Positions 1,068 to 21,404 of a DNA stretch of 36,796 nt are shown in pieces. Numbering within the stretch: the first letter of the stretch is position 1; each line of letters begins with the position of its first letter. Under the pieces are notes generated by a model. The model worked only from the letters and a program-made list of their open reading frames with translations, was not told the DNA's origin and did no database searches. The DNA is taken from the IMG/VR virus record IMGVR_UViG_2537562172_000001, positions 1 to 36,796 of that record; one strand, written 5' to 3'. Source of the DNA: a virus. Lineage: Duplodnaviria > Heunggongvirae > Uroviricota > Caudoviricetes. Both the position numbers and the translations under genes were made by a program.

Positions 1068-2177
1068 TCACTCTGTTTCCGCTATCCATTCCGGGATTTT
1101 TGCCTCAAGCTCAAGCTGCGTGGTAAAGCCGCTGTTATCAATGGTGTGCTCGGCTTTTGCAATAATCCAGTCCTGATTATCAATCTCGCTTTTAAATCCT
1201 GTTACCGTGCCATGCATTTCGGGGTAGAGTTCTGCGCGTCCACGTGCCAGCGTGATGGAAAATGATGCGGCTCCGCGTTGTAGCTGCTGCCACTTTGCCG
1301 CCGCTGCGCGTCTTGCTGCCTGCTCGTTCTGATAAGTTTTGCGTAACACAAATACGTTGCCTTCCGCACCTTCCATATAGTCACCTTCGCGGCTGCTGCT
1401 TTTCTCCTTTTTGGGTTTTGGCGGTTTGCGGCGTTTCACGCTGACTTTTTTCTTTTTCCCGTAATTAAGATCAAGCCAGTAGGCGCGTACACCCGTATAC
1501 GCCTCGCGGTCAGCAATGCGGAACTGATGGCGATCTCCGCTGCTGCGTGTGATGGCAAACGATGGCAACGGCTGGCCCTGCGCGTTCACGCCACCGCCGG
1601 GCATGATGAATAACAGATTACCGCTTTTTACCGTGGTGATTGCGCCCAGCATTTCCGCCATGCGCGTAAGGAAGGACATATCACTTTCTTCGGTCTGGTC
1701 GGCGTGGTCGATTTCAATATCCATCAGCATTTCGCTGATTTGCGGTTTCAGGCCGTATCGGTGAGCAATTGCAGACACCACGCGTTCAACGGTCACATCA
1801 TGCCAGGATACTTCGCGCTTGACGTTAAATTCATCCCGAAAATCTGCGCTTCTGGCTGAAATGGTCAGTCTGTCGGGCGGTCCTTCATGAGCAATTTCAT
1901 CAACAATGTAAGTGCCTTTTTCTGTCAGCGGTTCGCCTTTCCAGCCAATGAGAACCGTCAGGCGCGCGCCCCGTGGCGGTAGCTGCAACTGACCATCCGC
2001 ATCATCCAGCGTGATGGTGAGCTGGTCTGCCTCAAATCCCCGGTTGTCGGTCAGTGACAGGCTCATCAGGCGCTCTGCCACGCCTGACAGCGTTTTACCC
2101 TCCGCGAGAATATCAAAATCCGGCATTTTCACGGGGTCTGTGCCCTGACTGAGCAATTGCATGGTGGTATCGGTCAT
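1068..2177 (-). CDS. D: Tail protein D (late control D family)
   Basis: Long ORF 1068..2309. Likely start is the ATG at 2177..2175 (MTDTTMQLL...), preceded by AGGGAGGG at SD spacing. Size and position (next to ogr) fit P2 gpD. Confidence 0.85.
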   Translation of the reverse strand: MTDTTMQLLSQGTDPVKMPDFDILAEGKTLSGVAERLMSLSLTDNRGFEADQLTITLDDADGQLQLPPRGARLTVLIGWKGEPLTEKGTYIVDEIAHEGPPDRLTISARSADFRDEFNVKREVSWHDVTVERVVSAIAHRYGLKPQISEMLMDIEIDHADQTEESDMSFLTRMAEMLGAITTVKSGNLLFIMPGGGVNAQGQPLPSFAITRSSGDRHQFRIADREAYTGVRAYWLDLNYGKKKKVSVKRRKPPKPKKEKSSSREGDYMEGAEGNVFVLRKTYQNEQAARRAAAAKWQQLQRGAASFSITLARGRAELYPEMHGTVTGFKSEIDNQDWIIAKAEHTIDNSGFTTQLELEAKIPEWIAETE

Positions 2178-2334: not shown

Positions 2335-3519
2335 ATGAGTGAAACTCGTTTTCATGGTGCCCGTGTTACGGAAAATACCGACCTGGTAACAGCGATTAAC
2401 GATGTTGATTCCAGTGTTATCGGTATCGTGGCAACGGCGGATGATGCGGACGCGGAGCTGTTCCCGCTGAACAAGCCCACACTGCTGACCCGCGTCAATG
2501 ACGTGCTGGGAAAATGCGGAACAACGGGGACGCTTTATCGTGCGCTTAAGGCCATCGCAGACCAGGTGAGCACAAAGGTGATCGTCGTTCGCGTGGCTGA
2601 ACACAAAGAAGAAGACGGAAAAACGCAGGATCAACTGGTTATCGGTGGTTCTGAATCTGACGGCAGCTATACGGGGATGTATGCGCTGCTTGTTGCAGAG
2701 CAGGATGAAAGCATCGGATACCGTCCGCGTATTCTGGCCGCGCCGGAGCTGGACACGGAGGCGGTAACAAAATCCCTGTGCGTGATTGCGGGTAAACTGC
2801 GCGCGTTTGTGTATGCCTCATGTCACGGCTGTAACACGATGGCTGAGGCGATTACCTACCGCCAGAAATTCAACGAACGTGAGGTGATGCTCTTATGGCC
2901 GGACTTCATCGCCTACAACCCGAAAAGTGGCAAAAACGAAACGTTCCCCGCGCCTGCTTATGCGTGCGGCCTTCGTGCGTACATTGACCATGAGCAGGGC
3001 TGGCACAAATCGCTGTCCAACGTTCCGGTTAAAAATGTGCTGGGAATGTCCAGGCATGTGTTCTGGTCGTTGCAGGCCGAAGACAGCGATGCCAACAGCC
3101 TCAATAACAAAGAAATCACGACCATTATTCGTCGCAACGGGTTCCGCTTCTGGGGCAACCGCACACCGGAAACGAACGCCTACATCTTTGAGGTGTATAC
3201 CCGAACCGCACAGGTGCTGGCTGATTCAATTGCGGAAGCGCAGTTTGAAACCATCGACAGTCCACTGACGCCTGCGAACGTGAAGGATGTTATCAGTGCC
3301 ATCAGGGCAAAACTGGATTCGCTGGTTACTGCCGGGAAACTGATTGGTGCGGAGTGCTGGTATGACGTGGTGGATAACGGCACCACGAATTTACGTCAGG
3401 GACGTGTGCGTATTCGCTACAAATATACGCCCGTTCCGCCACTGGAAGACATGGAGCTTTACCAGACGTTTACTGATGAATTCTTTGGTCCCGCATTTGC
3501 GGTGCTGGGAGGTGCCTGA
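2335..3519 (+). CDS. FI: Contractile tail sheath protein
   Basis: 394 aa. Motifs LIRRNGFRFWGNRT and YKYTPVPPLE resemble P2 FI (LIRRDGFRFWGNRT, YDYTPVPPLE). Followed immediately by the tube gene. Confidence 0.9.
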   Translation: MSETRFHGARVTENTDLVTAINDVDSSVIGIVATADDADAELFPLNKPTLLTRVNDVLGKCGTTGTLYRALKAIADQVSTKVIVVRVAEHKEEDGKTQDQLVIGGSESDGSYTGMYALLVAEQDESIGYRPRILAAPELDTEAVTKSLCVIAGKLRAFVYASCHGCNTMAEAITYRQKFNEREVMLLWPDFIAYNPKSGKNETFPAPAYACGLRAYIDHEQGWHKSLSNVPVKNVLGMSRHVFWSLQAEDSDANSLNNKEITTIIRRNGFRFWGNRTPETNAYIFEVYTRTAQVLADSIAEAQFETIDSPLTPANVKDVISAIRAKLDSLVTAGKLIGAECWYDVVDNGTTNLRQGRVRIRYKYTPVPPLEDMELYQTFTDEFFGPAFAVLGGA

Positions 3520-4031
3520 TGGCTGTACCAAAACATCTTCGCTTTTTTACGTTGTTTGTGGATGGTGAAAACGAAGTGGGTAAAGTGACATCCGTCACGC
3601 CGCCCAAACTGACGCGCAAAACCGACAGCTATCGTGGTGGTGGCATGATGGGGGCGGTAAGTATTGATCTCGGTCTGGACGACTCCGCGCTTGATGCGAG
3701 TTTTGTTATGGGGGGAGCTGTTCGTGCGCTGTTCCTTAAATATGGCGGCACGATTGACGGCACGCTGCTGCGTTTTGCGGGTGAATACTACACCGATGCA
3801 GAAAGCGATCTGTATGAAATCGAGATGCGCGGGCGTGTGACGGAAATTGATATGGGGGAAGCCAAACAGGGCGAAGCCACATCACACACTTACGCTGTCA
3901 AAAACACCTACTACAAGCTGAGCGTTAACGATCGCCCGCTGTGGGAAATCGACCTGTTGAACCACATCTACCGGAAGGACGGCAAGGACATTGTTCCTGA
4001 CCGTATCCGTTCCGCGCTTGGGCTTGGCTGA
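3519..4031 (+). CDS. FII: Tail tube protein
   Basis: 170 aa, directly after the sheath gene with overlapping stop/start (TGATG). Size and position match P2 FII. Confidence 0.88.
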   Translation: MAVPKHLRFFTLFVDGENEVGKVTSVTPPKLTRKTDSYRGGGMMGAVSIDLGLDDSALDASFVMGGAVRALFLKYGGTIDGTLLRFAGEYYTDAESDLYEIEMRGRVTEIDMGEAKQGEATSHTYAVKNTYYKLSVNDRPLWEIDLLNHIYRKDGKDIVPDRIRSALGLG

Positions 4032-4086
4032 TAAGTAATATGCAGGCGGCGCAGTGCGTCGCCTCTGACTGAAAAGGAGAAAACTG

Positions 4087-4461
4087 ATGAAAGACATCGA
4101 TACTGAAACCCGGAATAACACCGTGGTGGATGATGTGACGGCAGGTGAGGATATGGCTGTCGAACGTGGCGTAAAACTGACCCGACCAATTGAGCGTGGT
4201 GGCGAAAAAATCACGTATGTGGAGATCACCGGGGCTATTGAACAGGCTGGATCCCTGCGTGGTCTGTCGCTGTCTGATGTGCTGAATCTGAAAGCGGATA
4301 CCATGTTCACGCTGTTGCCTCGCGTGACCTCGCCACGACTGGATGAAGTGATGATTAAAAAAATGTCGTCACGCGATTTTATTCAGTTGTGCGCTGTGGC
4401 TGTAAATTTTATGAGCGAGCCAGACTCTGGCGCGAAGAGCGTGCAGGAGACGGCAGCGTAA
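4087..4461 (+). CDS. E: Tail assembly chaperone E
   Basis: 124-aa acidic ORF between the tube and tape-measure genes, overlapped at its 3' end by a -1 frame ORF, which is the E/E' arrangement. Confidence 0.75.
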   Translation: MKDIDTETRNNTVVDDVTAGEDMAVERGVKLTRPIERGGEKITYVEITGAIEQAGSLRGLSLSDVLNLKADTMFTLLPRVTSPRLDEVMIKKMSSRDFIQLCAVAVNFMSEPDSGAKSVQETAA

Positions 4462-4625
4462 TCACCCTGGTGTGCTTTGAGCACATCGAAGATCTGGTGG
4501 CAGATATCGCCGCCATTTTTAACTGGTCGCCCGCCGAAATCTTCATGATGACGCCCGGCGAAGTGGTTAGCTGGCGTGAGCGGGCGGCACTTCGCAGCGG
4601 GAATGCAGACAATGAAGACTCTTGA
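4389..4625 (+). CDS. E' extension frame, expected to be expressed as an E+E' fusion by -1 programmed frameshift
   Basis: ORF in the -1 frame relative to E, overlapping E 4389..4461. Candidate slippery heptamer A_AAT_TTT at about 4404..4410 in the E frame. Ends with its stop overlapping the T start region. Confidence 0.55.
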   Translation: MRCGCKFYERARLWREERAGDGSVITLVCFEHIEDLVADIAAIFNWSPAEIFMMTPGEVVSWRERAALRSGNADNEDS

Positions 4626-7419
4626 TATCCGGGTCGCTTTCAGCGCCGTTGACAGACTGACCCGGCCTGCCGAAAACGCCCGCCGCCTGATGGGGCAGTT
4701 TGGTGACTCCATCCAGCGAACGCAGGGGGCGATCAAAAATCTCGAGCGTCAGGCGCGATCATTTGAGCGCGCCCGCGACGCTGTCAGTAAAGCGGATGCG
4801 GGCATCGTGAAAGCACGACGCCAGCTTAACGCCCTTAATCAGTTACAACGCACGGGTACAGTGCTCAGCGAAAAACAACAAAAACTGATGCAGCAGTTAA
4901 GCACCCGGCTTGAACGCCTGAATGAATCGCGTACACGGGAAATTCAGAAAATGCGGGAGCTTGGCGGAGAGCTGAAACGCCACGGCATTTCCCTGACAGG
5001 CAGCGATAACACCATCCAGCAGGCCATCAGACGCACCGAACAGTACAACAACCAGCTTGAACGCGAACGGCAGGCGCTTGCGCGTGTAACGCGGGCGCGT
5101 GAGCGGTATTCGCGCGCGCAGGAAACCGCGGGAAAACTGAAAACAGGTGGTGCGCTGGCAATTGGTGCGGCAGCGGCTGGCGGCTATGCTGCCGGGCGTT
5201 TTTTGCAGCCTGCGATCGGGTTCGGGAAAGAGATGTCCCGCGTTCAGGCACTGACGCGAATCGACAAAAACAGCCCGCAGTTTAAGGCGCTGCGTGAGCA
5301 GGCGTTAAAACTTGGCTCTGAAACGCAGTTCACCGCTGGAGATGCCGCCAGTGGACAGGCATTTCTTGCAATGGCGGGCTTCACACCGCAGGCCATTCAG
5401 GCTGCGCTTCCGGGCGTGCTGAGCATGGCAACGGCTGGCGGTATGGATCTCGGCGAGACGGCGGATATTGGCTCAAATATCCTGACGCAGTTCGGCCTTT
5501 CTGCTGACCAGATGGACCGGGTTGGCGACACGCTCACCGCAGCGTTTACCCGTACCAACACTGACCTTCGCGCACTGGGCGAAACCATGAAATATGCAGG
5601 TCCGGTGGCGGGTAAGCTGGGAATATCGCTGGAGCAGGCCGCAGCGATGGCGGGCGTGCTGGCGAATATGGGTATCAGAGGGAGTGATGCCGGGACGGCA
5701 ATGCGTGCCAGCCTGTCCCGCCTGGTAACACAGCCAAAGGCAACCGCTGATGCTCTGAAAGAGCTGGGGGTGGCTGTCTCTGATGCGAACGGCAAAATGC
5801 GCCCGATGGAGGATGTGCTGGCCGACCTTTATAAAGCCACCCGCAAATACGGGGAAGTTGACCGGGTATCCTTCTTTAAGGACATCGCCGGAGAAGAGGC
5901 TTTCACGTCATTTATGGCCCTCGTTGATGCGGCGGGTAACGGCTCCTTACCCAAACTGAGAAAAGAACTTGAGGGCGCACGCGGTGAGGCTGAACGCACG
6001 GCAAAGGTTATGGCCGACAACCTTGATGGCGACCTGAAATCACTCGGCAGTGCATGGGAAGGGTTGCGCATCCGCATTGCAGATCTGATTGACGGTCCGC
6101 TGCGTTCTGTCACGCAGTGGCTCACGCGGGTGGTCTCAAAGGTGACTGCGCTGGCGCAGGCCCATCCGGCACTGACGCGCCAGTTACTGATAGCGGGAGG
6201 CGCACTGCTGGCGACAACAGCAACGGTTGGTTCGTTGTCGCTGGTTATTGGGGTGCTTTACGGGAAGCTTGCCACCCTGCGTCTTGGTTTTGACATTCTT
6301 ACCCGGTCAATGAATGTCGTCAGGGTGTTGCCTGCGCTGTGGGGAATGGTGACGGGTTCCGTTTCTTTGCTGGGAGGCGCTATCGGGGCGCTGTTCAGTC
6401 CGGTTGGTCTTGTCGTGGCTGCGCTTGCCGGAGCTGCTGTTCTTATCTGGAAATACTGGGATCCCATCAGGGCATTTTTTGCCGGGGTGTTCAGCGGGAT
6501 TATGGAAAGGCTGACCCCGTTGCGCGAAACCTTTGAACGGTTTGGTCCTGTTTTTGACGCAATCGGAAGCGGGATCAGCCAGGTGTTTAACTGGTTTAAA
6601 TCGCTGTTGTCACCGATGGAGTCCAGCAAGGAAACGCTGGATAAATGTACCAGTGCTGGCGAGATATTCGGTAACGTTCTTGGTGGTGCGTTACAACTTG
6701 TTCTGACACCTGCAAAAATGCTACTGGATACGCTGGCGTGGATACTTGAAAAACTTGGCGTCCTTCCGGATGAAGCGGAAAGGGCGCGCAAGAAAATCGA
6801 AGACGCACAGCGTGCGGCCATTCTTCAGGACAAGGTTGCCTTACTTCAGGGGGACCTGGCGAAAATCAATCCGCCGAAGCCTGTGGAAAATGGCAATGGC
6901 ACCGGAGGTGATAAACCCAAAGACAACAAACCGCTTACAGACAGCAATACCGGGACGCTACGCAGACTCAGCAAAATTGCTGATAACACAGGTAAGCTGG
7001 TTGATGAGACGAAAAAACGCATTGGCCCCGGCGATATTGTCTTTAAGAACCTGCCCCGCGCACTTGCTGTTCGTGGGGAGTGGCAGGAGCGGAAGATTGC
7101 GCAGGTCAGTAAGCCTGCCCCCGCAATTAATATCACACCCGTGGTCCCGGCTCCGCTGCCTCCGGCGCTGGTCCCTGTTGTTGCGGCCAGCTCCCGCCCG
7201 GTGGCGGAGGCCATACGATCTCCAGTGGCATCAGTTCCTGTAACTTCCCGTAACCGGGAGCCTGTTGCCTCCGGATTTGGTGGTGAAATTCATGTTCATC
7301 TGCATAACGTTGTTACGCAGAATCCCCGCGAACTGGCGAAACTGGTCGGTGAAATGGTCAGGGCAGAAATGGAACGGCGCGCCCGTGCCGGACGTGGCAG
7401 TTTTTACGATAAAGATTGA
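4576..7419 (+). CDS. T: Tail tape measure protein
   Basis: 947-aa ORF with coiled-coil-rich N-terminal half and Gly/Ala-rich hydrophobic central segments; sits between E/E' and U. True start may be the ATG at 4603 or 4612 rather than the GTG at 4576. Confidence 0.9.
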   Translation: MSGRHFAAGMQTMKTLDIRVAFSAVDRLTRPAENARRLMGQFGDSIQRTQGAIKNLERQARSFERARDAVSKADAGIVKARRQLNALNQLQRTGTVLSEKQQKLMQQLSTRLERLNESRTREIQKMRELGGELKRHGISLTGSDNTIQQAIRRTEQYNNQLERERQALARVTRARERYSRAQETAGKLKTGGALAIGAAAAGGYAAGRFLQPAIGFGKEMSRVQALTRIDKNSPQFKALREQALKLGSETQFTAGDAASGQAFLAMAGFTPQAIQAALPGVLSMATAGGMDLGETADIGSNILTQFGLSADQMDRVGDTLTAAFTRTNTDLRALGETMKYAGPVAGKLGISLEQAAAMAGVLANMGIRGSDAGTAMRASLSRLVTQPKATADALKELGVAVSDANGKMRPMEDVLADLYKATRKYGEVDRVSFFKDIAGEEAFTSFMALVDAAGNGSLPKLRKELEGARGEAERTAKVMADNLDGDLKSLGSAWEGLRIRIADLIDGPLRSVTQWLTRVVSKVTALAQAHPALTRQLLIAGGALLATTATVGSLSLVIGVLYGKLATLRLGFDILTRSMNVVRVLPALWGMVTGSVSLLGGAIGALFSPVGLVVAALAGAAVLIWKYWDPIRAFFAGVFSGIMERLTPLRETFERFGPVFDAIGSGISQVFNWFKSLLSPMESSKETLDKCTSAGEIFGNVLGGALQLVLTPAKMLLDTLAWILEKLGVLPDEAERARKKIEDAQRAAILQDKVALLQGDLAKINPPKPVENGNGTGGDKPKDNKPLTDSNTGTLRRLSKIADNTGKLVDETKKRIGPGDIVFKNLPRALAVRGEWQERKIAQVSKPAPAINITPVVPAPLPPALVPVVAASSRPVAEAIRSPVASVPVTSRNREPVASGFGGEIHVHLHNVVTQNPRELAKLVGEMVRAEMERRARAGRGSFYDKD

Positions 7420-7425
7420 GGAGTC

Positions 7426-7920
7426 ATGGCCATGATGATGATCTACGGCATGTTTGTTTTTGAGCTGCGCACATTGCCGCATCAGCAGTTACAGCAAAAC
7501 AAAAGCTGGCGGCATGTGAAAAATGAACGCGTTAACCGCTCAGCAAGCTGGCAGTATATCGGTGCAGGTGATGATCGCATCGTGCTTTCCGGCGTGCTTT
7601 ATCCTGAAATTACAGGTGGCGAAGTGTCGCTTTCGTTGCTGACCACGCAGGCGTATACAGGACGCCCCTGGCCTCTGATTGATGGTGTCGGGCAGATTTA
7701 CGGCATGTATGTACTGACTGAAACGAATACGACCCGCTCCGAGTTTGATCGCTACGGTAAGGCGAAAAAGATAGAATTTTCACTGACCCTTGAACGCTGT
7801 GATGAGGATTTGCGGGAGCGCCTGCAATCCTCATCGTTCAGCGATATGCTGTCCGGCTTCAAAGATAAGGTGACATCATCTCTTAACAGCGCGGCCAGTT
7901 CAGTTAAAGGGCTGTTCTGA
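7426..7920 (+). CDS. U: Tail protein U
   Basis: 164-aa ORF immediately after the tape measure gene; size and position match P2 gpU. Confidence 0.8.
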   Translation: MAMMMIYGMFVFELRTLPHQQLQQNKSWRHVKNERVNRSASWQYIGAGDDRIVLSGVLYPEITGGEVSLSLLTTQAYTGRPWPLIDGVGQIYGMYVLTETNTTRSEFDRYGKAKKIEFSLTLERCDEDLRERLQSSSFSDMLSGFKDKVTSSLNSAASSVKGLF

Positions 7921-7931: not shown

Positions 7932-7967
7932 AACCGCTAATGGTCAGATTAGCGGTTATTTTGTTTT
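7932..7967. terminator. Bidirectional rho-independent terminator between the tail operon and the invertase gene
   Basis: Stem aaccgctaat / attagcggtt with 6-nt loop, then ATTTTGTTTT on the plus strand and an A-rich run upstream (T-run for the minus strand). The invertase stop lies in the hairpin. Confidence 0.6.
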
Positions 7968-8543
7968 CTGACTCTTCTCTATTGTTCCGCTTGATTCTCC
8001 TGCGGGGTGGTAACGATAAATCGTCGATGTACCAATGCCGTAAATTATTGCCAGTTGTTTTCTGTCGTGACCGTTTTTAATCAGCCTTGCTATTTGCTCA
8101 TGCTGTTCTTTTGTCAGCTTCGGGCGACGTCCGCCTGTGCGCCCCCGTGCGCGCGCTGCTGCCAGTCCGGCCAGTGTACGTTCAACAATTAATTCACGTT
8201 CCATTTCAGCCAGGGCACCCATCACGTGGAAGAAAAAACGCCCCATTGGAGAAGATGTATCTATGCTGTCGGTCAGACTGCGAAAATTAATCCCTCGCTC
8301 CCGTAGTTCCCCGACGAGAGAAATCAGATGTTTCATGCTTCGCCCGAGGCGATCCAGTTTCCAGACAACCAGCGTGTCACCTTTTTGAAGGCGCTTTAAA
8401 GCGCGTTTTAATCCCGGTCGGTCTGTCTTTGTCCCGCTTAATTTATCTTCAAATATTTGTTCACATCCTGCACAAACAAGAGCGTTTCGTTGCAGGTCTG
8501 TATTCTGGTCATTTGTTGATACCCTTACATAGCCAATCAGCAC
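7956..8543 (-). CDS. Serine-recombinase DNA invertase (Gin/Pin/Cin/Hin family)
   Basis: Translation contains LIGYVRVSTNDQNTDLQ (catalytic Ser region) and a C-terminal HTH (GIGTSTIYRY) typical of DNA invertases. Probable GTG start at 8543 with GGGAGA at SD spacing. Adjacent to a gix-like site. Confidence 0.9.
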   Translation of the reverse strand: MLIGYVRVSTNDQNTDLQRNALVCAGCEQIFEDKLSGTKTDRPGLKRALKRLQKGDTLVVWKLDRLGRSMKHLISLVGELRERGINFRSLTDSIDTSSPMGRFFFHVMGALAEMERELIVERTLAGLAAARARGRTGGRRPKLTKEQHEQIARLIKNGHDRKQLAIIYGIGTSTIYRYHPAGESSGTIEKSQKTK

Positions 8544-8597
8544 GCTGAATCTCCCGTCCAAAAGCGTAAATCATGCCATGCAGGTCAGAAACGGCCA

Positions 8598-8627
8598 TTA
8601 TCTAAAACCTCGGTTTACAGGAAACGG
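8598..8627. repeat. gix/cix-like inversion crossover site (right inverted repeat)
   Basis: ttatctaaaacctcggtttacaggaaacgg resembles the Gin/Cin recombination-site consensus, and is a near-perfect inverted copy of the site at 11665..11691. Confidence 0.7.
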
Positions 8628-9628
8628 TAAATCAGGCTTCTGGCGCATTACAGAAAAAACAGAACGGCGCAGATATTCCCGATAAAAAACTATTCCTGCG
8701 TAATATCGGCACAACAAATTCAACAACCATGTCTTTTAGTGGTGGTGCTGGATGGTTCAAACTGGCAACTGTAACAATGCCACAAGCCAGTTCCGTGGTT
8801 TACATAAGCCTGATTGGTGGCGCAGGGTATAACGTTGGCTCCTCGCATCAAGCAGGCATCTCTGAGCTGGTTCTGCGTGCCGGAAATGGGAATCCAAAAG
8901 GTATTACTGGTGCATTATGGCGACGGACATCGTTTGGATTTACTAATTTTGCATGGGTGAATACATCCGGTAATACCTATGATGTTTATGTTGAAATAGG
9001 TAATTACGCCACAGGTGTTAATATTCAGTGGGATTATACCAGTAACGCCAGCGTAACGATTCATACATCACCAACTTATACAGCGAATAAACCAACAGGC
9101 CTGACAGATGGAACTGTATATGTAATTTACAGTTCGCACATTAAACCGACTGCTGCTGAGGTTGGGGCGTTGTCATTATCTGGCGGTCAATTGAATGGTG
9201 CACTGGGCATCGGAACATCCAGTGCTCTTGGTGGTAACTCGATTGTTTTGGGTGATAATGACACGGGATTTAAACAAAATGGCGACGGGCATCTGGATGT
9301 TTATGCGAATAACGTCCATGTTATGCGCTTTGTCTCCGGCAGTATTCAAAGTAATAAAACCATAAATATTACGGGGCGTGTTAATCCCACAGATTACGGT
9401 AACTTTGATTCCCGCTATGTCCGGGATATCCGGCTTGGTGGTGCTGCCACATACAAACCTGCGAACAATGGCATGACATGGACACATCAGGCACCGTCCG
9501 GGTGTGTATATTCCGGCATTATTGTTCAGGATACCGGCTCAAACTCTGCCGATAACATTGGTGGCGTATATTACAGGCCGGTTCAGAAATACATTAACGG
9601 GACATGGTATAACGTGGCACAGGTATAA
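8628..9628 (+). CDS. Silent alternative tail-fibre C-terminal cassette (promoterless; fused to H constant region after inversion)
   Basis: Frame is open from the crossover site (ORF track starts at the ATG at 8729). The first residues after the site ([17 protein letters not shown]) parallel H after its crossover site, and the C-terminus ...[12 protein letters not shown] parallels the H end ...[12 protein letters not shown]. Confidence 0.7.
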
Positions 9629-9631
9629 TTT

Positions 9632-10159
9632 ATGCAGCATTTGATAAATATAACAGCGGGTAATCCAAAAACGGTTGAACAATATCAATTGACAAAGGGT
9701 TTTGATGTTGTCTGGTTTTTTTCAGAAGATGGTAAGAACTGGTACGAAGAACAAAAGTATTTTGCTGATGACACGATAAAAATAGCGTACGACAAAGATA
9801 ATATTATCCGCTATGTGGAAAAGGATGTGACAGCTATCAGACCAGATGGATTAAGTGTTGTTGAAGTGCCAGATATTACTGCTAACCGACGGGCGGACAT
9901 TTCAGGGAACTGGATGTTTAAGGACGGCACAGTGATTAAACGAATTTATACGGCGGAGGAATTGCAGCAGCAGGCAGAAAATCGGAAAGCCAGACTTCTT
10001 GCAGATGCTGAATCCGTGATTTTGCCGCTGGAGCGTGCTGTCAGGCTGAATATGGCAACAGATGAGGAGCGTAGCCGACTGGATGCATGGGAACGCTACA
10101 GCGTTCTGGTCAGTCGTGTGGATACGGCAAATCCTGAATGGCCACAAAAGCCTGAATAA
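9632..10159 (+). CDS. Tail fibre assembly protein, alternative copy (G')
   Basis: 175 aa. N-terminus [24 protein letters not shown] is nearly identical to that of the convergent G copy, with a divergent C-terminal half, the usual pattern for paired fibre chaperones in invertible segments. Confidence 0.8.
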
Positions 10160-10164
10160 AAATT

Positions 10165-10190
10165 AAGGCCCGATAGCGGGCCTTGTTTCA
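10165..10190. terminator. Hairpin between the convergent tail-fibre assembly genes
   Basis: Stem aaggcccg / cgggcctt with short loop and flanking T/A-rich runs on both strands. Confidence 0.45.
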
Positions 10191-10721
10191 TTCTGGTTGT
10201 TCTGGAAACGTTACTGGCAGGCTGGAGGTGTCTGTGGATTCGACCTTCTGCGCATAGAGCATCCACTCGGTTAATTTTTGTTTATTCTCGTCGGAAATGA
10301 TGCCCAGCCGTAGCTGTGAGTCCCATAGCTGGGTTTTATCCCTGACAAGTTGCAACAGGCTTTGCTTTTCATTCTCTGCCTGCTGCCTCTGTTCCTCCTC
10401 GGTATAAGTTCGCTTTATCACTACGCCATCTTTGAACATCCATTTCCCCGAAATATCAGCCCGGCGATTTGCTGTAATATCAGGCAACTCAACGACACTT
10501 AAACCTTCTGGATTAATTGCCGATACATCTTTATCCATAGCAACAATTATTCCCTCTACAGTGTAAGCCAGTTTTATTGTATCTTTCTGAAAGTTTTTCA
10601 CTTCCTCATACCAGTTTTTTCCGTCTTCGGACCATAACCAGATAACATTAAAATTCTTTGTTAGCTGATATTGTTCAACGGTTTTTGGATTACCTGCGAC
10701 AATGTTTTTTAAATGCTGCAT
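10188..10721 (-). CDS. G: Tail fibre assembly protein (expressed copy)
   Basis: 177 aa, directly downstream of H in the same orientation. N-terminus [24 protein letters not shown]. Confidence 0.85.
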
Positions 10722-10723
10722 GA

Positions 10724-13075
10724 TTATACCTGCGATACGTTATACCATGTTCCGTTAATTAACTTTTGTATTGGTCTGAATACTGCCGGATCATCGCCAT
10801 CAACTTCACCGACAATGCCAAGCCCCGTAATTGCATGACCTGACTTTTCATACATCACGCCTTTTTGCATAGTCTGAACAACACGTGTGCCCAGTCGAAT
10901 ATCTCGTACATAGCGAGAATCTGATTCGGCTTTGGTATATGCACCAACATCTCCTGCTGATGGCTTGCGTGTTGTGGTATAAAACTCTGACCAGTCAGCC
11001 TCAAATCCATAACCATCACGCGCTGAACGATAAAAAATACCGCCGTTCCTGTAATTCACGCGGAACTGTACAGCAGGGCAGCTCCCCGTATTCATATTGA
11101 AGTGGAGGATTAATGTCGATGCGCCACTAATGTTTGCGTTATAGACCCCGCTATTCCAGTTCCAGCCAACAGCTTTATCATTTCCGACAGTGCTTCCTGT
11201 TCGCCCTAAAGCAAATGCAGGTTGTTGATTTTTCGTGTTGTAGTCTCGTCGCCAGCCAGGAGCGTAAGCATCACCATGATTGATATAAGTGAATTGAGCG
11301 TTAGTAATTCCGTCACCGCTGGACGTGCTCGGCGTGGTAACGCGTATGGTCATTGCGCCGCGAGTGCCAATAACTTCCACCACAGCACCTGCAAGACAAA
11401 TATTTCCGCAACCTGTATCTGTAATGACCTTATTATTTGCATAAGCCCATGAGCCTTTGCACATCCAGTAAGGATGGTTAAATGCCCCCTGACTCTCCAG
11501 CCACGAAATAAATTGCGCGGTTGTCCAGACCTGATTATCGCCACCAATATCCAGCCATGCGCTATATGCGCGGCAGGCCCCAATATTTTTGGTGAAGGTA
11601 TCTTTTCCTGGAATATCTGCGCCGTTCTGGTTTTTCTGTAATGCGCCAGAAGCCTGATTTACCGTTTTCTGTAAACCGAGGTATTCGATAACGGCGGCAA
11701 CGGTAGATTTCGCAAGAATATCCCGCCCGACTTTTGTCAGAGTTGCCAGGCTGGCGACATCATTCCCCGTAAAATACGGAAACCTGTCTGCCGCAGTATC
11801 AAGCCCGGCCAGCGCCGTCAGGGTGGCATCTTTCGGTTGCTTACCCGCAAGCGCGTTAGTCATGGTGGTCGCAAAATTCGGGTCGTTTCCCAGCGCCGCC
11901 GCTAACTCGTTCAGCGTATTCAGTGCGTCAGGTGACGAATCTACAAGGGCGGCAATCGCAGCCATAACGAAAGCCGTGCTTGCGATTTGGGTATTATTCG
12001 TTCCCTGTCGCGCAGTTGGCGTTGTTGGCGTTCCGGTCAGCGCAGGACTGTTTAAGGGCGCTTTCTTGTTCGTTTCATCCATTACCACCTTAACCGCTTT
12101 CGATGTCGCGGCCAGTGTTTCAGACGTGCTGTTGGTGGCACTACTGAGCTGGACTATCCCTTTTTGTGCCGTCGTGGCGTCCTGAGCGGTATATTTTGCG
12201 TTAGCAAGGTCATACGCGGCCTTTACTGCTTTCGGCGTTGCAGCCTGCGTTTCAGACGTGCTGTTGGTGGCACTACTGAGCTGGACAAGACCTTTTCGCG
12301 CTGTAGTGGCGTCCTGTGCGGTATATTTCCCGTTAGCAAGGTCATAGGCTGCCTTGACCGCTTTCGGCGTTGCGGCCAGTGCTTCAGACGTGCTGTTGGT
12401 GGCGCTACTGAGCTGGACAAGACCTTTTCGCGCTGTAGTGGCGTCCTGTGCGGTATATTTCCCGTTAGCAAGGTCATAGGCTGCCTTGACCGCTTTCGGC
12501 GTTGCGGCCAGTGCTTCAGACGTGCTGTTGGTGGCGCTACTGAGTTGAACAAAGCCTTTTGCGGTCAGCGAGGCGTCCGGGTGACGTCGTGACTGTTCGT
12601 GCTCTGAGATTTTGTCATCCACATATTTGCGGGTTGCCAGAACCACAGACGGGTCGATTTTCAGCGTGATGGCTTCGGTGTTCGTGACAACCAGAATCAT
12701 GCGGATAGTCTGGGTGCGTCCACTGCCTTCCTGCAACTGCGGTTTGTACGTTTCCGGGCAGTTCGCCACCGCAATGAGTACGCCTTCATCATCATAAAGC
12801 CCAATCTCACGGATCCAGAATCCTCCCTCGTTTTCAGGGATAATTTGCTCCGCAATAATCTGGCTCTGATTGTTAGGGTCAACGCTCAGAAGATTCAGCG
12901 GTGCAATGCGTTTCTGGTTAATCAGTTTTGTCTGTGCCGGGTCTGGTGTCGGTAATACACCATTCGCATCACCAACGGCCATTTGCGTCAGATTCAGCTT
13001 ACTGCCGAGCATCGTCGCGTTAGCCAGTCGTGCCGCGCCCTGATTAGTCAGAATGGCGTAGTATTTCACTGTCAT
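10724..13075 (-). CDS. H: Tail fibre protein (constant N-terminal part plus currently expressed variable C-terminal part)
   Basis: 783 aa with internal ~45-aa tandem repeats ([42 protein letters not shown]) and a gix-like site inside the gene at about 11665..11691. C-terminus ...[11 protein letters not shown]. Confidence 0.9.
11665..11691. repeat. gix/cix-like inversion crossover site (left inverted repeat, inside H)
   Basis: ttttctgtaaaccgaggtattcgataa; its reverse complement ttatcgaatacctcggtttacagaaaa matches the 8598..8627 site at most positions. Confidence 0.7.
12105..12580. repeat. In-frame tandem repeats (~135 bp unit, about 3.5 copies) within the constant part of H
   Basis: Near-identical 135-bp units are visible directly in the sequence, for example two adjacent copies starting near 12247 and 12382. 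Confidence 0.7.
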
Positions 13076-16142: not shown

Positions 16143-16593
16143 CCCACGTCACATCCTGGAATACATGCGACCAGTCGCCTTCGGGAGATGGCAGGCGGGG
16201 TTTTGGCTCCGGCAGGTGTTCTGCCTGCGGCGCGCCCTGACTGCTGCGCGTGATGCGAACGCGTTCCCGCAGGGGGAGCGTAAACAGGAGATCGGCGCTG
16301 TCATCGTCATTGATAACGGCGGAGAATTTGATGTCCTGATTACGCTCCGGATTGAGCAACAACTGCGGCTGATTTTTGGATAACCACGCCAGCAGCGGCA
16401 GCGTGAGGTCGTCCAGCTCCCCGGCGTAATCCATGACAAACATCACCATCTGATAGCGGTAAACAAACGAGGGCGTTTCTCCGGTCGTTTCAATGTTGCC
16501 GCTCTCCACGAAAATGGTGAATTTTTCCGGGTTGGCCTGACACCATCGGCATGAACGGGTCATGGCTTCACGCAGGGAATCAGTTTTCAGCAT
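16126..16593 (-). CDS. R: Tail completion protein R
   Basis: 155 aa, the same length as P2 gpR, directly after the lysis cassette. Confidence 0.75.
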   Translation of the reverse strand: MLKTDSLREAMTRSCRWCQANPEKFTIFVESGNIETTGETPSFVYRYQMVMFVMDYAGELDDLTLPLLAWLSKNQPQLLLNPERNQDIKFSAVINDDDSADLLFTLPLRERVRITRSSQGAPQAEHLPEPKPRLPSPEGDWSHVFQDVTWGESDG

Positions 16594-16870
16594 GGTTGTT
16601 GTCCTCGTTGTTCAGTCGTTGCAGCCTGCGCTGTTCCAGTAATTCAATGGCCCGTTTATCCGCGTTACAGGTTTCCAGTGCATCCAGAAGGCGGTCGCCC
16701 CATATACCGAGATTTCCCCATGTGGGAGTGTCAGGGAAGGGGGGAGGCGTTACCGGTATGGTCAGCGTCTGCGGTATAAGCCGGACTGACGGCGCTGGCA
16801 GTGGCGCGTTCTGCGTGCCTGCGCAACCTGTCAGTAAAACGAGCGTCAGGCAAAGCGTGGGCGCATTCAT
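16580..16870 (-). CDS. Rz1-like outer-membrane lipoprotein spanin component (LysC-like)
   Basis: From the internal Met: MNAPTLCLTLVLLTGCAG carries a lipobox (LTGC), followed by a Pro-rich segment. Encoded in a different frame overlapping the 3' end of the Rz-like gene and the 5' end of R, as P2 lysC does. Confidence 0.65.
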   Translation of the reverse strand: MNAPTLCLTLVLLTGCAGTQNAPLPAPSVRLIPQTLTIPVTPPPFPDTPTWGNLGIWGDRLLDALETCNADKRAIELLEQRRLQRLNNEDNNHAEN

Positions 16871-17138
16871 CTTTTGCAATATCGTTGCGTAGCTGTTCAC
16901 GTCTGGCCTCTCCGTCCTGATTTCTCTGTTGATTTTCCACGCGGAGTTGCGCCAGCACCTGCTGCATATCCTGTACCCCGGTGCTGATGATATTCAGGGT
17001 GTCGACGGTACTTTTCAGGGCGCTGGCCTGCGCTTCGTTTCTGGCGTTCTCCCGGCCCAGCGACCACGACAGACGCATGGATGTTCCCCATGCGGCAATC
17101 AGAAGGAAAGCGACGCCCAGCGTGGGCCAGAGCTTCAT
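16731..17138 (-). CDS. Rz-like inner-membrane spanin component (LysB-like)
   Basis: From the internal Met at 17138 (MKLWPTLGVAFLLIAAWG...): N-terminal TM helix then coiled-coil-like region. Start overlaps the endolysin stop. Confidence 0.65.
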   Translation of the reverse strand: MKLWPTLGVAFLLIAAWGTSMRLSWSLGRENARNEAQASALKSTVDTLNIISTGVQDMQQVLAQLRVENQQRNQDGEARREQLRNDIAKDECAHALPDARFTDRLRRHAERATASAVSPAYTADADHTGNASPLP

Positions 17139-17527
17139 GCCGGATAGGCTCCGTGTGGTAACTGAAAATGCGGTCCGTCTTTCAGGGTCTTCCAGTCGCC
17201 GCCCCATTCCACCGGAATATTCAGTTCCCGGCTGGCCTGTCTGAATGCTGCTGCGATTTTTTCGTACAGCGGCCATTCCCATGACACCTGGCTGCCGATA
17301 TAAGCCACAACATCCACGGCATGCCCCGTAAGGTGGCGGCTGTTCATGGTCTGGCTCTTACCCGTGGCCACCAGTTGCTTCTGGCGGTAACGGCTGCGCA
17401 CCCCTTCGGTGATACCAAAATCCACTTCCGAGATTTCCAGTGCCCGTCGGGTCACTTTCACCAGATCAGGATTTACGCCCTGCAAATTCTTTTCGCTCCG
17501 GCTGCTGAATTTAAATGTGTTGCTCAT
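17135..17527 (-). CDS. Endolysin, peptidase M15 (L-alanyl-D-glutamate / D-Ala-D-Ala peptidase-like)
   Basis: 130 aa containing SRHLTGHAVDV (His/Asp zinc-binding pattern of M15 peptidases). Lies between the holin and spanin genes. Confidence 0.75.
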   Translation of the reverse strand: MSNTFKFSSRSEKNLQGVNPDLVKVTRRALEISEVDFGITEGVRSRYRQKQLVATGKSQTMNSRHLTGHAVDVVAYIGSQVSWEWPLYEKIAAAFRQASRELNIPVEWGGDWKTLKDGPHFQLPHGAYPA

Positions 17528-17847
17528 TCGTCCTTCTCCTTCACCCTGCGATTAAAGGCCGCAATAACCTTGTCGCGTGCTTTCTCTGCCCCCATAAAAC
17601 CGATTGATGCGCCGATAAACGTCACGGCATCTTCAGGAAAACCGAAGAAGCGCAACGACCCGGCCACGGCCATGGCAAGAACGCCGCACGCCAGCGATCC
17701 CGTTACGGTCTGAACCAGTGTTCGTCCGTCATAAAGACTCATCAGCGCGGAAATGCTGACCGCCGCGCCTACTGCATACACCGTTGGCAGGTGGTCAAAG
17801 AGCCATGCAATAACCTGCTCTGTAATCCCTGTTTGAATGGTGCTCAC
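17524..17847 (-). CDS. Holin
   Basis: 107 aa with hydrophobic TM segments and a charged C-terminus (RRVKEKDE), immediately upstream of the endolysin. Apparent GTG start. Confidence 0.65.
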   Translation of the reverse strand: MSTIQTGITEQVIAWLFDHLPTVYAVGAAVSISALMSLYDGRTLVQTVTGSLACGVLAMAVAGSLRFFGFPEDAVTFIGASIGFMGAEKARDKVIAAFNRRVKEKDE

Positions 17848-18049
17848 TGCTACTCCCCCACAACTGAATCATTTCTCGTTTCTTCTTCTCCGGCTCCGGC
17901 ATCTCCACTTCCTGCCCGGCGTCCAGAAATACCTGCTGACAGAGTCCGGGGTTGGCATCCAGCACCTTTTCGGTGACGCCCTGCGTCGTGCCGTAGTACC
18001 GGAAACAGAGCGAATCCACGGTGTCGCCTTCCAGTGCCTTCACTTTCAT
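17795..18049 (-). CDS. X: Tail protein X (LysM-like)
   Basis: From the internal Met: MKVKALEGDTVDSLCFRYYGTTQGVTEKVLDANPGL resembles P2 gpX (MKTFALQGDTLDAICVRYYGRTEGVVETVLAANPGL). Start overlaps the L stop. Confidence 0.75.
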   Translation of the reverse strand: MKVKALEGDTVDSLCFRYYGTTQGVTEKVLDANPGLCQQVFLDAGQEVEMPEPEKKKREMIQLWGSSSEHHSNRDYRAGYCMAL

Positions 18050-18552
18050 CAGCACAACTCCGCAAAGATTCGCGGGCGGCACAGAATGTCAGAGATGGCC
18101 CAGCTCACATCGCGCCACAAATCCGATGTCTGTATATCCAGTGCGTCCGCCCGGCGGTCGCCCTTGTCCGTTGTGTCCGCATCGCGGTAACGCTCCAGAA
18201 TCAGGGCGCGGGTGGCGGTGTAAACCGCATTGCGCCAGTGCCAGAGATTGACGCTTTCTCCGTTAATTACGGGTGCCGGAACATCGGCCAGCGTCTGATG
18301 GCCAGCCGCCTGCTGTTCCTGCTGCCATGTTTCCAGCTCGCGGGTAACGTGTGCCACAGCTCCGGTGGCGGTATGCAGCAGGCGGGAGGTGGTCACGCGC
18401 CCCGGCAGTCGTACAGCCAGACGCAGCTCGCGCAGCACAATATCCGGCCAGAATGCACCTGCTGAAATGCGAGTGTCGCCATCATCGGTATCGGTGATGT
18501 CGTCCTCTGCGGGTCCTGGTTCAGTTCTGGCAACCATACTCATGGGGTTCAC
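18049..18552 (-). CDS. L: Head completion/stabilisation protein
   Basis: 167 aa (P2 gpL is 169 aa), between M and X. Confidence 0.8.
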   Translation of the reverse strand: MNPMSMVARTEPGPAEDDITDTDDGDTRISAGAFWPDIVLRELRLAVRLPGRVTTSRLLHTATGAVAHVTRELETWQQEQQAAGHQTLADVPAPVINGESVNLWHWRNAVYTATRALILERYRDADTTDKGDRRADALDIQTSDLWRDVSWAISDILCRPRIFAELC

Positions 18553-18645
18553 TCCTGAAAAAAATCGGGCGGTGGGTGCGCGGTGTAAACGGTCACGGAG
18601 TCAAACCGGAACACCGAGCACGCCGCCCGCTGACGGGGTCAGTCG

Positions 18646-19446
18646 TTAACCGCGCTTCGCCTTCTGCGTCGCGGTGGTTTTTCGTGTTGCAGGCTTCCGC
18701 GTTGTCTTTTTACTTTTGCTGCTTTCGTCCTGCGCCTGCTGTGCGCTGGCGTCTTCTGGTGCGGCTGCGGAATCGGCTTTTTTCAGGGCGCGGGAAAGGG
18801 TTGCAATCTCGCGTTTCACACCTGCGTTCGGGTTCAGGTGCATTGCTTCGCGCAGCAGCTTCAGTGACAGGGCCATGCTGTCCGCATCACTCAGGCCACG
18901 GCGGGCAAAGGCGCACGCTTTGCATAATTTGGCGCGCACTTCGTCCGGCATGTCCTGGTCGGTGACAATCTCCCGGAGGGTGTCCAGTGGTTCGATAAAG
19001 GCGGACAAATCCGCGTCGGCATCCGTCCCGGCCTGCGTCAGTACCGGATTACAGATTTCTTCGGTCAGTACCGTGGCAGCAGTACGTCCAAAGTTATCCG
19101 GCATGATGAGGTTGTGACGGACCACATACGCACCAATACGCAGCGCAAGCGGAAGATCGCCGCAGTCAATCGCCCACACCATCAGCGTGGCAATCACTTC
19201 GTCCTGTTGCCCGCCGTCAGCCTCCAGCGTTCCCTCAATCCAGCCGGAAAAGTCCGGCAACAACTCTTTTTTGATGGCGGCTTTCGCGCTTCTGGCCTGT
19301 ACGCCCTTAAGCCGGGCCTGTGCCAGACGCAGACGATACAGCACCTCTTCATGCGCGGTACGCGCGGCGTGGTCCACGCCTTCAGTCGACCGGCCTGCGC
19401 GCTGTGCCATCACGTTCTGCCAGTGTTGCTGTGCAGGAGTAATCAT
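18646..19446 (-). CDS. M: Terminase endonuclease (small) subunit
   Basis: 266 aa with a basic C-terminal tail, between N and L. P2 gpM synteny. Confidence 0.8.
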   Translation of the reverse strand: MITPAQQHWQNVMAQRAGRSTEGVDHAARTAHEEVLYRLRLAQARLKGVQARSAKAAIKKELLPDFSGWIEGTLEADGGQQDEVIATLMVWAIDCGDLPLALRIGAYVVRHNLIMPDNFGRTAATVLTEEICNPVLTQAGTDADADLSAFIEPLDTLREIVTDQDMPDEVRAKLCKACAFARRGLSDADSMALSLKLLREAMHLNPNAGVKREIATLSRALKKADSAAAPEDASAQQAQDESSKSKKTTRKPATRKTTATQKAKRG

Positions 19447-19491
19447 TTGTTCTCTCCGTTACAGGCGGGCATGATGCCCACCGTGAGTTGA

Positions 19492-20544
19492 TTAGCTGTC
19501 GGCGAACTTCAGGCCAGTGACCATCGCGCACTTGCCATAGTCTTCAACGACATAAGCATCGTTGATGGACTGGTAGGTGGCGATGCGGTTGTATTCCGGC
19601 TCGTCTTTCATCAGGCGACGCATTGTTCCTTTCTGCCAGTAAATCGACAGGTTGTTGAACGAGGTGATCAGCATCGTTGAATCCGGGAAGAACGGCGCAA
19701 GGAATACATCCAGCCCGCCAATGGCGCGCGATGACAGGATGAGCTGTCCGGCAAGTAATTCCGCATTGGGATTCTGGCCGCTGATGCTGTTCAGCACGGG
19801 CAGACGCAGCGAGTTAAACAGGTTGCGCCCCATAATCACCACGAGGTCGTCAGCTTCCTTGTGCCATTCATCCAGCAGGGATGAGCGCGCGTCCTGTACC
19901 AGTGCATCAGCGTTCGCATACTTACCCGCGTGCGCCACGGTGTTGTCCATGTTGCGGGAGGTCAGCGTTACATCATTCATAACGCGCTCGCTGGCGTCGG
20001 TTCTGATGTGCTCCAGCCATCCCACGTTAACGTCCTGAAGCAGCTTGTTAGTGCTGAAGTTGGACTCATCTGCGTGAGACGTGCCGTTGAAACCGATCAT
20101 GATGCGGTCAAGCGCCACCTGCCGGGCAATCTGTCTGCTGACGCGGGACTGAAAATCAGGGTGTGCCGCCCAGGCATCAAGCTGCGGATACGAAATAAAC
20201 GTGTCGTAGTTCACCTGTTCGCACTGGTATTTGCGGTTTTTCAGATCAACCACGTTATTCGGGTTACGGCGTTTTGTGCCGTCATAACTGGTATTCGTGC
20301 GCGCAATCGGCCCGGTGGTATCCAGGAGGATTTTTTCGCCTTTCTGGTCGGTCACACCGAATACGTTAATTTTTTTTGTAAATTCAGTGCTCTCCTTTAC
20401 TGCGTTTTCAAAACGCTGCTGCACCGAGGGTTCCACGGTAAATCGCGATACCAGTGCAGATACCGGGATATTGTTAAGCGACGCCTGCTGCGCCATATAG
20501 CAACCCAGTTTGTTGCGGGTAATATCTGACATCACCAGATTCAT
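19492..20544 (-). CDS. N: Major capsid protein
   Basis: 350 aa. RFTVEPSVQQ near the N-terminus parallels P2 gpN KFTVEPSVTQ. Confidence 0.9.
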   Translation of the reverse strand: MNLVMSDITRNKLGCYMAQQASLNNIPVSALVSRFTVEPSVQQRFENAVKESTEFTKKINVFGVTDQKGEKILLDTTGPIARTNTSYDGTKRRNPNNVVDLKNRKYQCEQVNYDTFISYPQLDAWAAHPDFQSRVSRQIARQVALDRIMIGFNGTSHADESNFSTNKLLQDVNVGWLEHIRTDASERVMNDVTLTSRNMDNTVAHAGKYANADALVQDARSSLLDEWHKEADDLVVIMGRNLFNSLRLPVLNSISGQNPNAELLAGQLILSSRAIGGLDVFLAPFFPDSTMLITSFNNLSIYWQKGTMRRLMKDEPEYNRIATYQSINDAYVVEDYGKCAMVTGLKFADS

Positions 20545-20567
20545 AAAAAATTTGCTCCTTTGTCTTG

Positions 20568-21404
20568 TCAGAAGTCAGCCAGTTGGTCGGAGGCTGCGCC
20601 CGTTGCGGTGAACCGGTTCTGCGGATCGCCGTCCTGCGTGCGCAGTTTTTCCTTCAGTGCTGTCAGCTCTGTGGTCAGTGAAATGATTTTCTGACGGTCC
20701 TGCTTATGGCGGGCTTCCAGTGCATTAAAACGGTCGATAATGTCGGCCTGTGACGTTGCGACGCCTTCCACCGCTTCCTGAATGCGGGAAAAACTGGTGT
20801 CATCCGCTTTGCGGCCACGGCTAATAATTCCCATTACGCGGTTAAACCACTGGGTGCCTTCTTCCTGGCGTTGTTCTGCCATTTCGATGATTTCAGACTC
20901 GATGGCTTCGGAGATAAGCGGTGCTTCACCCTGGGCACTGTTAAACGTCATCACCGCCTGACGTTGCTGTGCCGTGAATTTCAGGCGCTCAGTGCCCAGG
21001 CTTGCCGGGGTGTCGGTCATCGCCAGCCCGACCAGATAGGCGCGCCCGTTGACGGAGAACTGCGGGTGCAGTTCGATACTGGAATAGATTTTCTTGCCGT
21101 CAGCGACAAGCTGCTTCATGCGCTCGGTCGGTTCGATTTCTGCATACAGCGCAGTACGCCCGGCCAGCGTACCTTCCGTAATGTCTTCCGTACTCAGTGC
21201 GGTGACATCGCCCATTGCGGAAAATTCGCTTGACGGGCATGGCGAGAGATAGTGCTCAACGTTCACGCGGGCAGCGTAAACATCCGGATCGAAGTTCTCA
21301 GCAGCTTCACGCAGATGCACCGGACTGATTTCGCGGCCATCAACAGTTGATCCGGAGACAGCCACGCGAAACTTTTTGCGGGATGTCTTTTTTTCATTAG
21401 CCAT
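20568..21404 (-). CDS. O: Capsid scaffolding protein
   Basis: ORF 20568..21437. Likely start is the ATG at 21404 (MANEKKTSRKKFRVAVSGSTVDGREI...), preceded by GAGGGG and paralleling the P2 gpO N-terminus. Confidence 0.85.
   Translation of the reverse strand: MANEKKTSRKKFRVAVSGSTVDGREISPVHLREAAENFDPDVYAARVNVEHYLSPCPSSEFSAMGDVTALSTEDITEGTLAGRTALYAEIEPTERMKQLVADGKKIYSSIELHPQFSVNGRAYLVGLAMTDTPASLGTERLKFTAQQRQAVMTFNSAQGEAPLISEAIESEIIEMAEQRQEEGTQWFNRVMGIISRGRKADDTSFSRIQEAVEGVATSQADIIDRFNALEARHKQDRQKIISLTTELTALKEKLRTQDGDPQNRFTATGAASDQLADF

Follow-up and report, generated by a model that had tools for sequence, protein, structure and literature searches.

The closest described counterpart of the locus considered here is the G segment of phage Mu (invertase Gin, crossover sites gix; also present in D108, SfMu, and Mu-like phages of Yersinia), in which the invertase gene lies just outside one of the two sites, the constant N-terminal part of the fibre gene (Sc) remains outside the segment, and two alternative fibre ends with their chaperones (Sv-U and U'-Sv') stand back to back inside it. 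The C segment of P1 and P7 (Cin/cix) and the P segment of e14 (Pin) depend on the same family of Fis-dependent serine invertases and likewise switch fibre C-termini together with chaperones; the P1 C segment is bounded by much longer inverted repeats of about 0.6 kb. For productive inversion by a serine invertase, both sites need an identical central dinucleotide; the enhancer-dependent invertases of this family also require Fis and negative supercoiling, and they invert DNA without deleting or fusing it. In P2-like prophages of enteropathogenic Escherichia coli (EPEC) E2348/69, both fibre-segment orientations were experimentally shown to coexist (Goldberg et al. 2014, PMC4272514). Here, we describe a locus of this kind in IMG/VR virus record IMGVR_UViG_2537562172_000001 (Caudoviricetes), of which positions 1 to 36,796 were analyzed (the whole stretch of 36,796 nt is referred to as the window). 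Judged by its gene content, the element is an almost complete P2-like E. coli prophage of the Xuanwuvirus type (Peduoviridae), and we put the probability that the locus is a host-range switch with two states, driven by its invertase as in the Mu G segment, at roughly 90 %. The locus looks functional, and the system is an already known one that involves no new mechanism.

A preliminary description of the window, made from its sequence alone, had proposed a Gin/Pin-type invertase beside an invertible segment of about 3.1 kb with two alternative fibre C-termini and two fibre-assembly genes between inverted gix-like sites. All of these elements were found: the two fibre ends (Sv and Sv') and the two assembly genes lie back to back within the segment, and the constant part of the fibre gene H (Sc) lies outside. 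From left to right in the window, the region comprises the following features (where no strand is given, none applies).

7932-7957: bidirectional terminator-like hairpin, common to gpU (plus strand) and the invertase gene (minus strand)
7956-8543, minus strand: DNA invertase, a Gin/Hin/Cin/Pin-type serine recombinase of 195 amino acids (Pfam, PDB match, Mu Gin alignment)
8364-8454: predicted Fis-dependent recombinational enhancer (sis-equivalent), at about nt 90-180 of the invertase gene, placed by homology to Mu gin only
8594-8686: left arm of the inverted repeat, consisting of the site and shared coding sequence
8598-8623, plus strand: invertase-proximal gix-like site TTATCTAAAACCTCGGTTTACAGGAA, central TC at 8610-8611, 25/26 match to Mu gix
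8612-9628, plus strand: Sv', the silent alternative fibre C-terminus, 338 amino acids past the crossover codon, ending in NVAQV (frame open from 8606)
9632-10159, plus strand: silent tail-fibre assembly gene, 175 amino acids, cognate of Sv' (lambda-gpK/Caudo_TAP type, Pfam Caudo_TAP 9e-35)
10164-10185: bidirectional terminator-like hairpin between the convergent assembly genes
10188-10721, minus strand: expressed tail-fibre assembly gene, 177 amino acids, cognate of Sv and paralogue of the 175-amino-acid gene (Pfam Caudo_TAP 4e-34)
10724-13075, minus strand: fibre gene H, 783 amino acids
10724-11677, minus strand: Sv, the variable C-terminus of H now joined to Sc, amino acids 467-783 (317 amino acids), ending in NVSQV, with a gp37_C domain
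11603-11695: right arm of the inverted repeat
11666-11691, minus strand: H-proximal gix-like site TTATCGAATACCTCGGTTTACAGAAA, central TC at 11679-11678 (minus strand) in codon L466 of H, 23/26 match to Mu gix
11678-13075, minus strand: Sc, the constant N-terminal part of H, amino acids 1-466, outside the segment, supplying the start codon and the upstream transcription

Both sites are 26 bp long and inverted relative to each other, with the central TC read from outside to inside, which is the arrangement of two imperfectly palindromic sites used by the Din serine invertases. That they are true inverted repeats with the gix sequence, as the preliminary description had assumed, was borne out by comparison with the Mu record, in which both gix sites read TTATCCAAAACCTCGGTTTACAGGAA; their extents were refined to those given above. 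A search of the 36.8 kb window for the gix consensus with up to three mismatches returned just these two sites, with 0.00 expected in shuffled sequence. Each site forms the outer end of one arm of an inverted repeat (93-nt arms, 91 % complementary), the left arm of which adjoins the 5' end of the invertase gene. Exchange at the central TC is predicted to generate the chimeric sites TTATCTAAAACCTCGGTTTACAGAAA and TTATCGAATACCTCGGTTTACAGGAA.

The crossover dinucleotide falls into the CTC codon of L466 in H (11680-11678), the equivalent codon of the silent cassette being 8609-8611. Inversion in silico fused Sc (amino acids 1-466) in frame to the 338 amino acids of Sv', yielding an H' of 804 amino acids that ends in NVAQV, as compared to the 783-amino-acid H. 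The earlier statement that the H frame is open across both sites holds for this fusion but not for the Sv' frame as it now stands, since the invertase-proximal site has a TAA stop in its outer arm, at 8603-8605; as this stop lies outside the exchange point, the fusion frame is preserved after inversion. The swap of the distal ~320 amino acids together with the chaperone, as originally suggested, was likewise recovered, with lengths corrected to 317 (Sv) and 338 (Sv') amino acids, and it is indeed the C-terminus ending in NVSQV that the window orientation expresses. As in the Mu G type, the constant N-terminus is located outside, two opposed sets of C-terminus and chaperone are located inside, and the frame is kept across the crossover.

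Both orientations of the segment occur naturally. Near-identical prophages were collected by an exact-protein look-up with the 175-amino-acid assembly protein; two of the resulting contigs (L005 and L009, from draft assemblies) match the window at 100 % identity, and its orientation is also that of L001-L007. Contig L008, from the Logan assembly of SRR12827341, shares 99.9 % identity with the window but has the segment flipped with respect to the flank that holds the invertase. The junction in L008 agrees over 161 nt, without a mismatch, with the recombinant constructed in silico by exchange at the central TC; on the invertase side, its site joins an outer half from the invertase-proximal site (T6, A9) to an inner half from the H-proximal one (A24). 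Because the diagnostic differences in L008 are 14 nt apart, an assembly graph with k=31 needs real recombinant reads to make this junction. In complete E. coli genomes, the exact prophage was not found, the best collinear matches being ~91-92 % identical over 5.7 kb; a 5.7 kb query was collinear with 13 records when taken as it stands in the window and with 18 when inverted in silico. The possibility that only one orientation is ever observed, which the preliminary description had named as a point that would count against a switch, is refuted by the predicted junction in L008 and by the complete genomes in both orientations.

Further pairs of related loci (L021/L024, L023/L025, and L016/L018) contain the same segments in opposite orientations, with the inner half-site polymorphisms travelling along and the outer halves staying in place. 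An exact reciprocal inversion at the same chromosomal place, with flanks 100 % identical, distinguishes the Adelaide isolates 95JB1 and 95NR1, whose prophage is ~90 % identical to the window. Across the public loci, the outer half-sites are fixed in position (TTATC[T/C]AAAACC by the invertase, TTATCGAATACC by H), and the inner half-site variants ACAGGAA, ACAGAAA, ACTGGAA, and GCAGGAA move together with the segment. Both natural orientations expected of a Mu G-type switch, with junctions at the site core, are represented in these assemblies.

Some additional observations concern the same loci in other records. E. coli DS26-1 (NZ_CP035879.1) harbors two related copies (16498-21977 and 5061663-5067143), one window-like and the other inverted. 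The near-identical draft contigs L010 and L008 begin at window positions 8620 and ~8695, respectively, within the 93-nt repeat or bordering on it, which fits assembly breaks induced by the repeat or by mixed orientations. RefSeq calls the silent fibre end by the invertase an 'incomplete, missing N-terminus' pseudogene or a short 'tail fiber protein' (L015 6906-7616; L014 2913-3572); the pseudogene label is an annotation artefact of the switch and does not signify decay.

The enzyme itself was correctly assigned to the Gin/Pin type at the outset. It consists of a Resolvase (Pfam 1.5e-50) and an HTH_7 domain (1.1e-13), matches the Gin structures 4m6f (E=9e-101) and 3uj3 over its full length, and shares the serine motif YVRVSTNDQ with Gin; a length of ~190 amino acids, a resolvase N-terminus, a serine near position 9-10, and a C-terminal helix-turn-helix are the hallmarks of the enhancer-dependent Din (Gin/Hin/Cin/Pin) invertases, and all are present. 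The open reading frame is intact, and no inactivating mutation was found in it. Its longest version (7956-8561, minus strand, 201 amino acids) begins with a TTG at 8561; however, the GTG at 8543 (195 amino acids) is the likely start because it is preceded by a GGGAGA Shine-Dalgarno sequence, Mu gin starts there, and public gene calls give 195 amino acids. Overall, 157 of the 195 residues are identical to Mu Gin, and amino acids 1-122 differ only at R39K and I120V (~98 % identity for the catalytic domain). At the DNA level, nt 1-330 show 14 differences from Mu gin (96 % identical, and 96-100 % for the enhancer region), only three of which fall within nt 1-216, and the identity drops to ~50 % past about nt 400. 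The DNA-binding domain is equally close to Hin (1hcr, 3e-13) and Gin (6e-13). By these comparisons, the invertase is a mosaic of a Gin-identical catalytic and enhancer half and a diverged, equally Hin-like DNA-binding half. The exact protein was encountered in 2871 blocks of a public assembly collection, every time between gpU and the fibre segment and with both arrangements represented.

The Fis sites of the Mu enhancer are situated within the gin coding region, ~550 bp upstream of the mom start (PMC3378877); this places them at roughly gin nt 100-180 and thus at 8364-8454 in the window. Fis-like 15-mers occur at nt 94-108 and 140-154 of the invertase gene, both identical to Mu and 46 bp apart. 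Going by the homology to Mu gin, the Fis enhancer is probably conserved. As for transcription, a -10 element for the invertase might, speculatively, be provided by the GATAAT in the proximal site's outer arm. No promoter-like site was found by a scan upstream of the silent cassette, and the region contains two promoter-like matches as compared to a shuffle mean of 7.4, that is, fewer than shuffled sequence.

The fibre itself combines parts with different relatives. H, preceded on its strand by gpI and gpJ, begins with a P2-type Phage_tail_fib collar-fibre domain, followed by four Phage_fiber_2 repeats. Within its shaft, a 132-bp (44-amino-acid) tandem repeat is present in 3.6 copies (window 12088-12560, minus strand) and in 5.7 copies in the relative from enterotoxigenic E. 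coli (ETEC) strain ETEC1732 (L015 3770-4517); H ranges from 700 to 855 amino acids among relatives, and the fibre length varies because the repeat copy number varies. In Mu, S'/U' confer the G(-) specificity, whose hosts include Citrobacter freundii, Shigella sonnei, and E. coli C. Over 324 amino acids, the expressed Sv shares 83 % identity with the Mu S' variable part, and its 177-amino-acid chaperone shares 86 % with Mu U'; for the silent 175-amino-acid chaperone, the identity to Mu U amounts to 75 %. Sv' shares 83 % amino acid identity with fibre genes of the Yersinia Mu-like phages vB_YpM_5/6/39, for which the lipopolysaccharide core serves as receptor (PMC10434027), and its last 167 amino acids are 93 % identical to the tip of the phage P2 fibre H. 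The two ends match fibre tips of phages with different receptors. Since the similarity between Sv and Sv' is confined to the first ~40 and the last ~70 residues, a change in receptor specificity would be the expected consequence of inversion.

Taken together, the mechanism would proceed as follows. The Gin-like serine recombinase would bind the two inverted 26-bp gix-like sites and, by analogy with Gin and Hin, be activated by Fis on an enhancer in the 5' part of its own gene. Both sites would be cut at the central TC/GA, one subunit pair rotated by 180 degrees, and the ends religated, inverting ~3.07 kb. The start codon, transcription, and the first 466 codons of the fibre gene lie outside, so that inversion would replace the 317-amino-acid, Mu S'-like Sv and its 177-amino-acid chaperone with the 338-amino-acid Sv' (with its P2-H-like tip) and the 175-amino-acid chaperone; in the window orientation, Sc-Sv (783 amino acids) and the 177-amino-acid chaperone are expressed. 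The dependence on Fis and supercoiling, the invertase promoter, and the actual difference in receptor or host range are inferred.

The architecture agrees closely with that of the Mu G segment, in which Sc, the back-to-back cassettes, and the invertase are arranged as in the window. The segment shows ~86-89 % DNA homology to the G segments of Mu, SfMu, and the Yersinia Mu-like phages and to the C segment of P1/P7; for the P1/P7 and e14 cassettes, the DNA similarity is 78-86 %. The classification as Mu G-segment type in the preliminary description is supported by this cassette homology, by that of sites and enzyme, and by the flipped near-identical copy. There are differences nevertheless: the host element is a P2-like prophage rather than a transposable Mu-like phage, the window's Sc is a P2-H-type shaft of 466 amino acids as compared to ~170 in Mu S, and Sv' is not Mu Sv but resembles the fibres of Yersinia Mu-like phages and the P2 H tip. 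e14, in contrast to the window prophage, is a defective remnant. Closer in genomic setting are the Xuanwuvirus phages 503458, 520873, and P88, which have the same order of gpT-gpU, invertase, two fibre ends with two chaperones, and H-I-J, with the FI-U block on the opposite strand; their records annotate a 'DNA invertase' and two fibre/chaperone pairs, and the P88 paper contains no mention of inversion. Their sites differ by 2-3 substitutions, and megablast covers 57 % of a 3.9 kb query (87 % identity where aligned) because the cassettes differ. In EPEC E2348/69, one locus is a simple two-state module and the other has three repeats and four variants, a likeness to the window that is drawn from the published description of these loci.

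Several points weigh against a working switch. The orientation evidence is drawn from public assemblies of related prophages, and 17 of the 18 near-identical public contigs (10 places and 8 similar ones), or at least those that span a junction, are in the window's orientation. From about amino acid 123 on, the identity of the invertase to Gin is ~50 % (DNA-binding domain, amino acids ~123-195). A consensus scan revealed no sigma-70 promoter for the invertase gene, and a loose consensus scan of its first 330 nt no pair of Fis sites at the canonical 48-bp spacing, which is why the enhancer claim rests on homology to Mu gin; the enhancer that the preliminary description had proposed to look for in the 5' part of the gene is accordingly backed by near-identical Mu DNA but not by such a pair. 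One way to read these findings is that the locus is a frozen relic, which retains the architecture of an active ancestor but no longer inverts, owing to a weak or absent invertase promoter or to a DNA-binding domain mismatched to the sites, and that other orientations are old and fixed. The near-uniform orientation, the lack of a promoter-like match, and the divergence from Gin would all suit such a copy. However, L008 is flipped though 99.9 % identical to the window, so that inversion must be recent, and 95JB1 and 95NR1 differ in orientation despite 100 % identical flanks; the open reading frame is moreover intact, its catalytic core is Gin-identical, and the exact protein is conserved across thousands of assembly blocks. 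We consider a relic very unlikely.

We give even less credence to inversion by RecA-dependent homologous recombination of the host across the 93-bp inverted repeat, for which the invertase would be irrelevant. In some relatives the repeat does contain a perfectly identical stretch of 72 bp, and in 95JB1/95NR1 the exchange cannot be placed more finely within it; yet the exchange lies within the 26-bp site in every informative case (between positions 9 and 24 in L008, and 9 and 22 in L021/L024), an interval of ~14 out of roughly 90 nt. A 90-bp repeat is, besides, a poor substrate for RecA, and a dedicated, conserved invertase with a matching site adjoins. A multi-site shufflon with more than two sites and several fibre variants, comparable to p15B Min or to the three-repeat, four-variant module in one P2-like prophage of EPEC E2348/69 (PMC4272514), is hardly credible for the window. 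Further internal inverted repeats (9574-9982 / 10371-10778) might hint at one, but they represent paralogous coding sequence (assembly genes and fibre ends, 74-79 % similar) devoid of a gix core; there are only two sites at up to three mismatches, and those with 6-7 mismatches are no commoner than in shuffles. A degenerate scan of the whole window with up to seven mismatches gave no additional gix-like sites beyond shuffle expectation. The shufflon was rejected, as systems of that class (R64 Rci, p15B Min, the EPEC module) have three or more sites and the window has two.

The sister prophage L015 (E. coli ETEC1732, from pig, NZ_CP122823.1) is 97.3 % identical to the window from position 1 as far as the invertase-proximal gix site; within the inner half of that site, at 8618-8622, megablast-level homology drops and other fibre cassettes follow, so that the mosaic boundary coincides with the crossover site. 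This break, together with the mosaic invertase, suggests the tentative and rather doubtful idea that gix sites may also serve as junctions at which receptor-binding cassettes are exchanged among unrelated phages (P2-like, Mu-like, and P1-like). Fibre modules could move by recombination between elements, mediated by the invertase or by the repeats. The notion of such sites as fibre-module exchange junctions is an old one, reportedly going back to Sandmeier in 1994.

The surrounding prophage has a gene order identical to that of Escherichia phage 503458 (Peduoviridae, Xuanwuvirus) and the features of P2-like Xuanwuvirus members. P2-type genes in the window include gpD, FI, FII, E, T, U, I, J, W, V, S, R, X, L, terminase, portal, gpA, integrase, and ogr. 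From left to right, ogr and a Hok/Gef gene are followed by gpD, FI-FII-E-T-U, the switch, H-I-J-W-V-S-R, lysis genes, X, L, capsid genes, terminase, and portal, and then by a ParM-like gene, gpA, an SPFH protein, the C4/isrK RNAs, and the integrase at the right end. Prophages of pig ETEC strains share 99.9 % identity with the left end, and for positions 1-1067 the E. coli records of that identity annotate a hypothetical protein, a toxin of the Hok/Gef family, and a zinc-finger late activator of the ogr/Delta type. In canonical P2, H, G, FI, FII, E, T, U, and D are all on the same strand, whereas the window's sheath-tube-E-tape-measure-U block (FI-FII-E-T-U, 2335-7920, plus strand) runs opposite to gpD (1068-2177, minus strand) and H-I-J. 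This arrangement is common to phage 503458 and all relatives fetched. A search of the flanks of the FI-U block found no inverted repeats around it, and a gix-mediated origin of its orientation was rejected, as there are no gix-like sites beyond shuffle expectation at up to seven mismatches in the whole window. The accessory and early regions encode two proteins and two RNAs of note, the latter (early/control region) matching Rfam above the gathering score (C4 antisense RNA 78.5 bits; isrK Hfq-binding small RNA 72.4 bits).

26975-27934, minus strand: ParM/StbA-type actin-like segregation protein
31562-31649, minus strand: C4 antisense RNA (Rfam)
31685-31759, minus strand: isrK small RNA (Rfam)
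31873-32703, minus strand: SPFH/Band-7 protein

The finding has little significance beyond annotation. The switch explains assembly breaks and differences at this locus as well as the calls of 'partial tail fibre' pseudogenes by the invertase. For the biology of the prophage, it implies that virions with either of two receptor-binding tips, Mu S'-like or P2 H-like, could be released, a capacity to be taken into account when the host range or the spread of prophages in E. coli is predicted.

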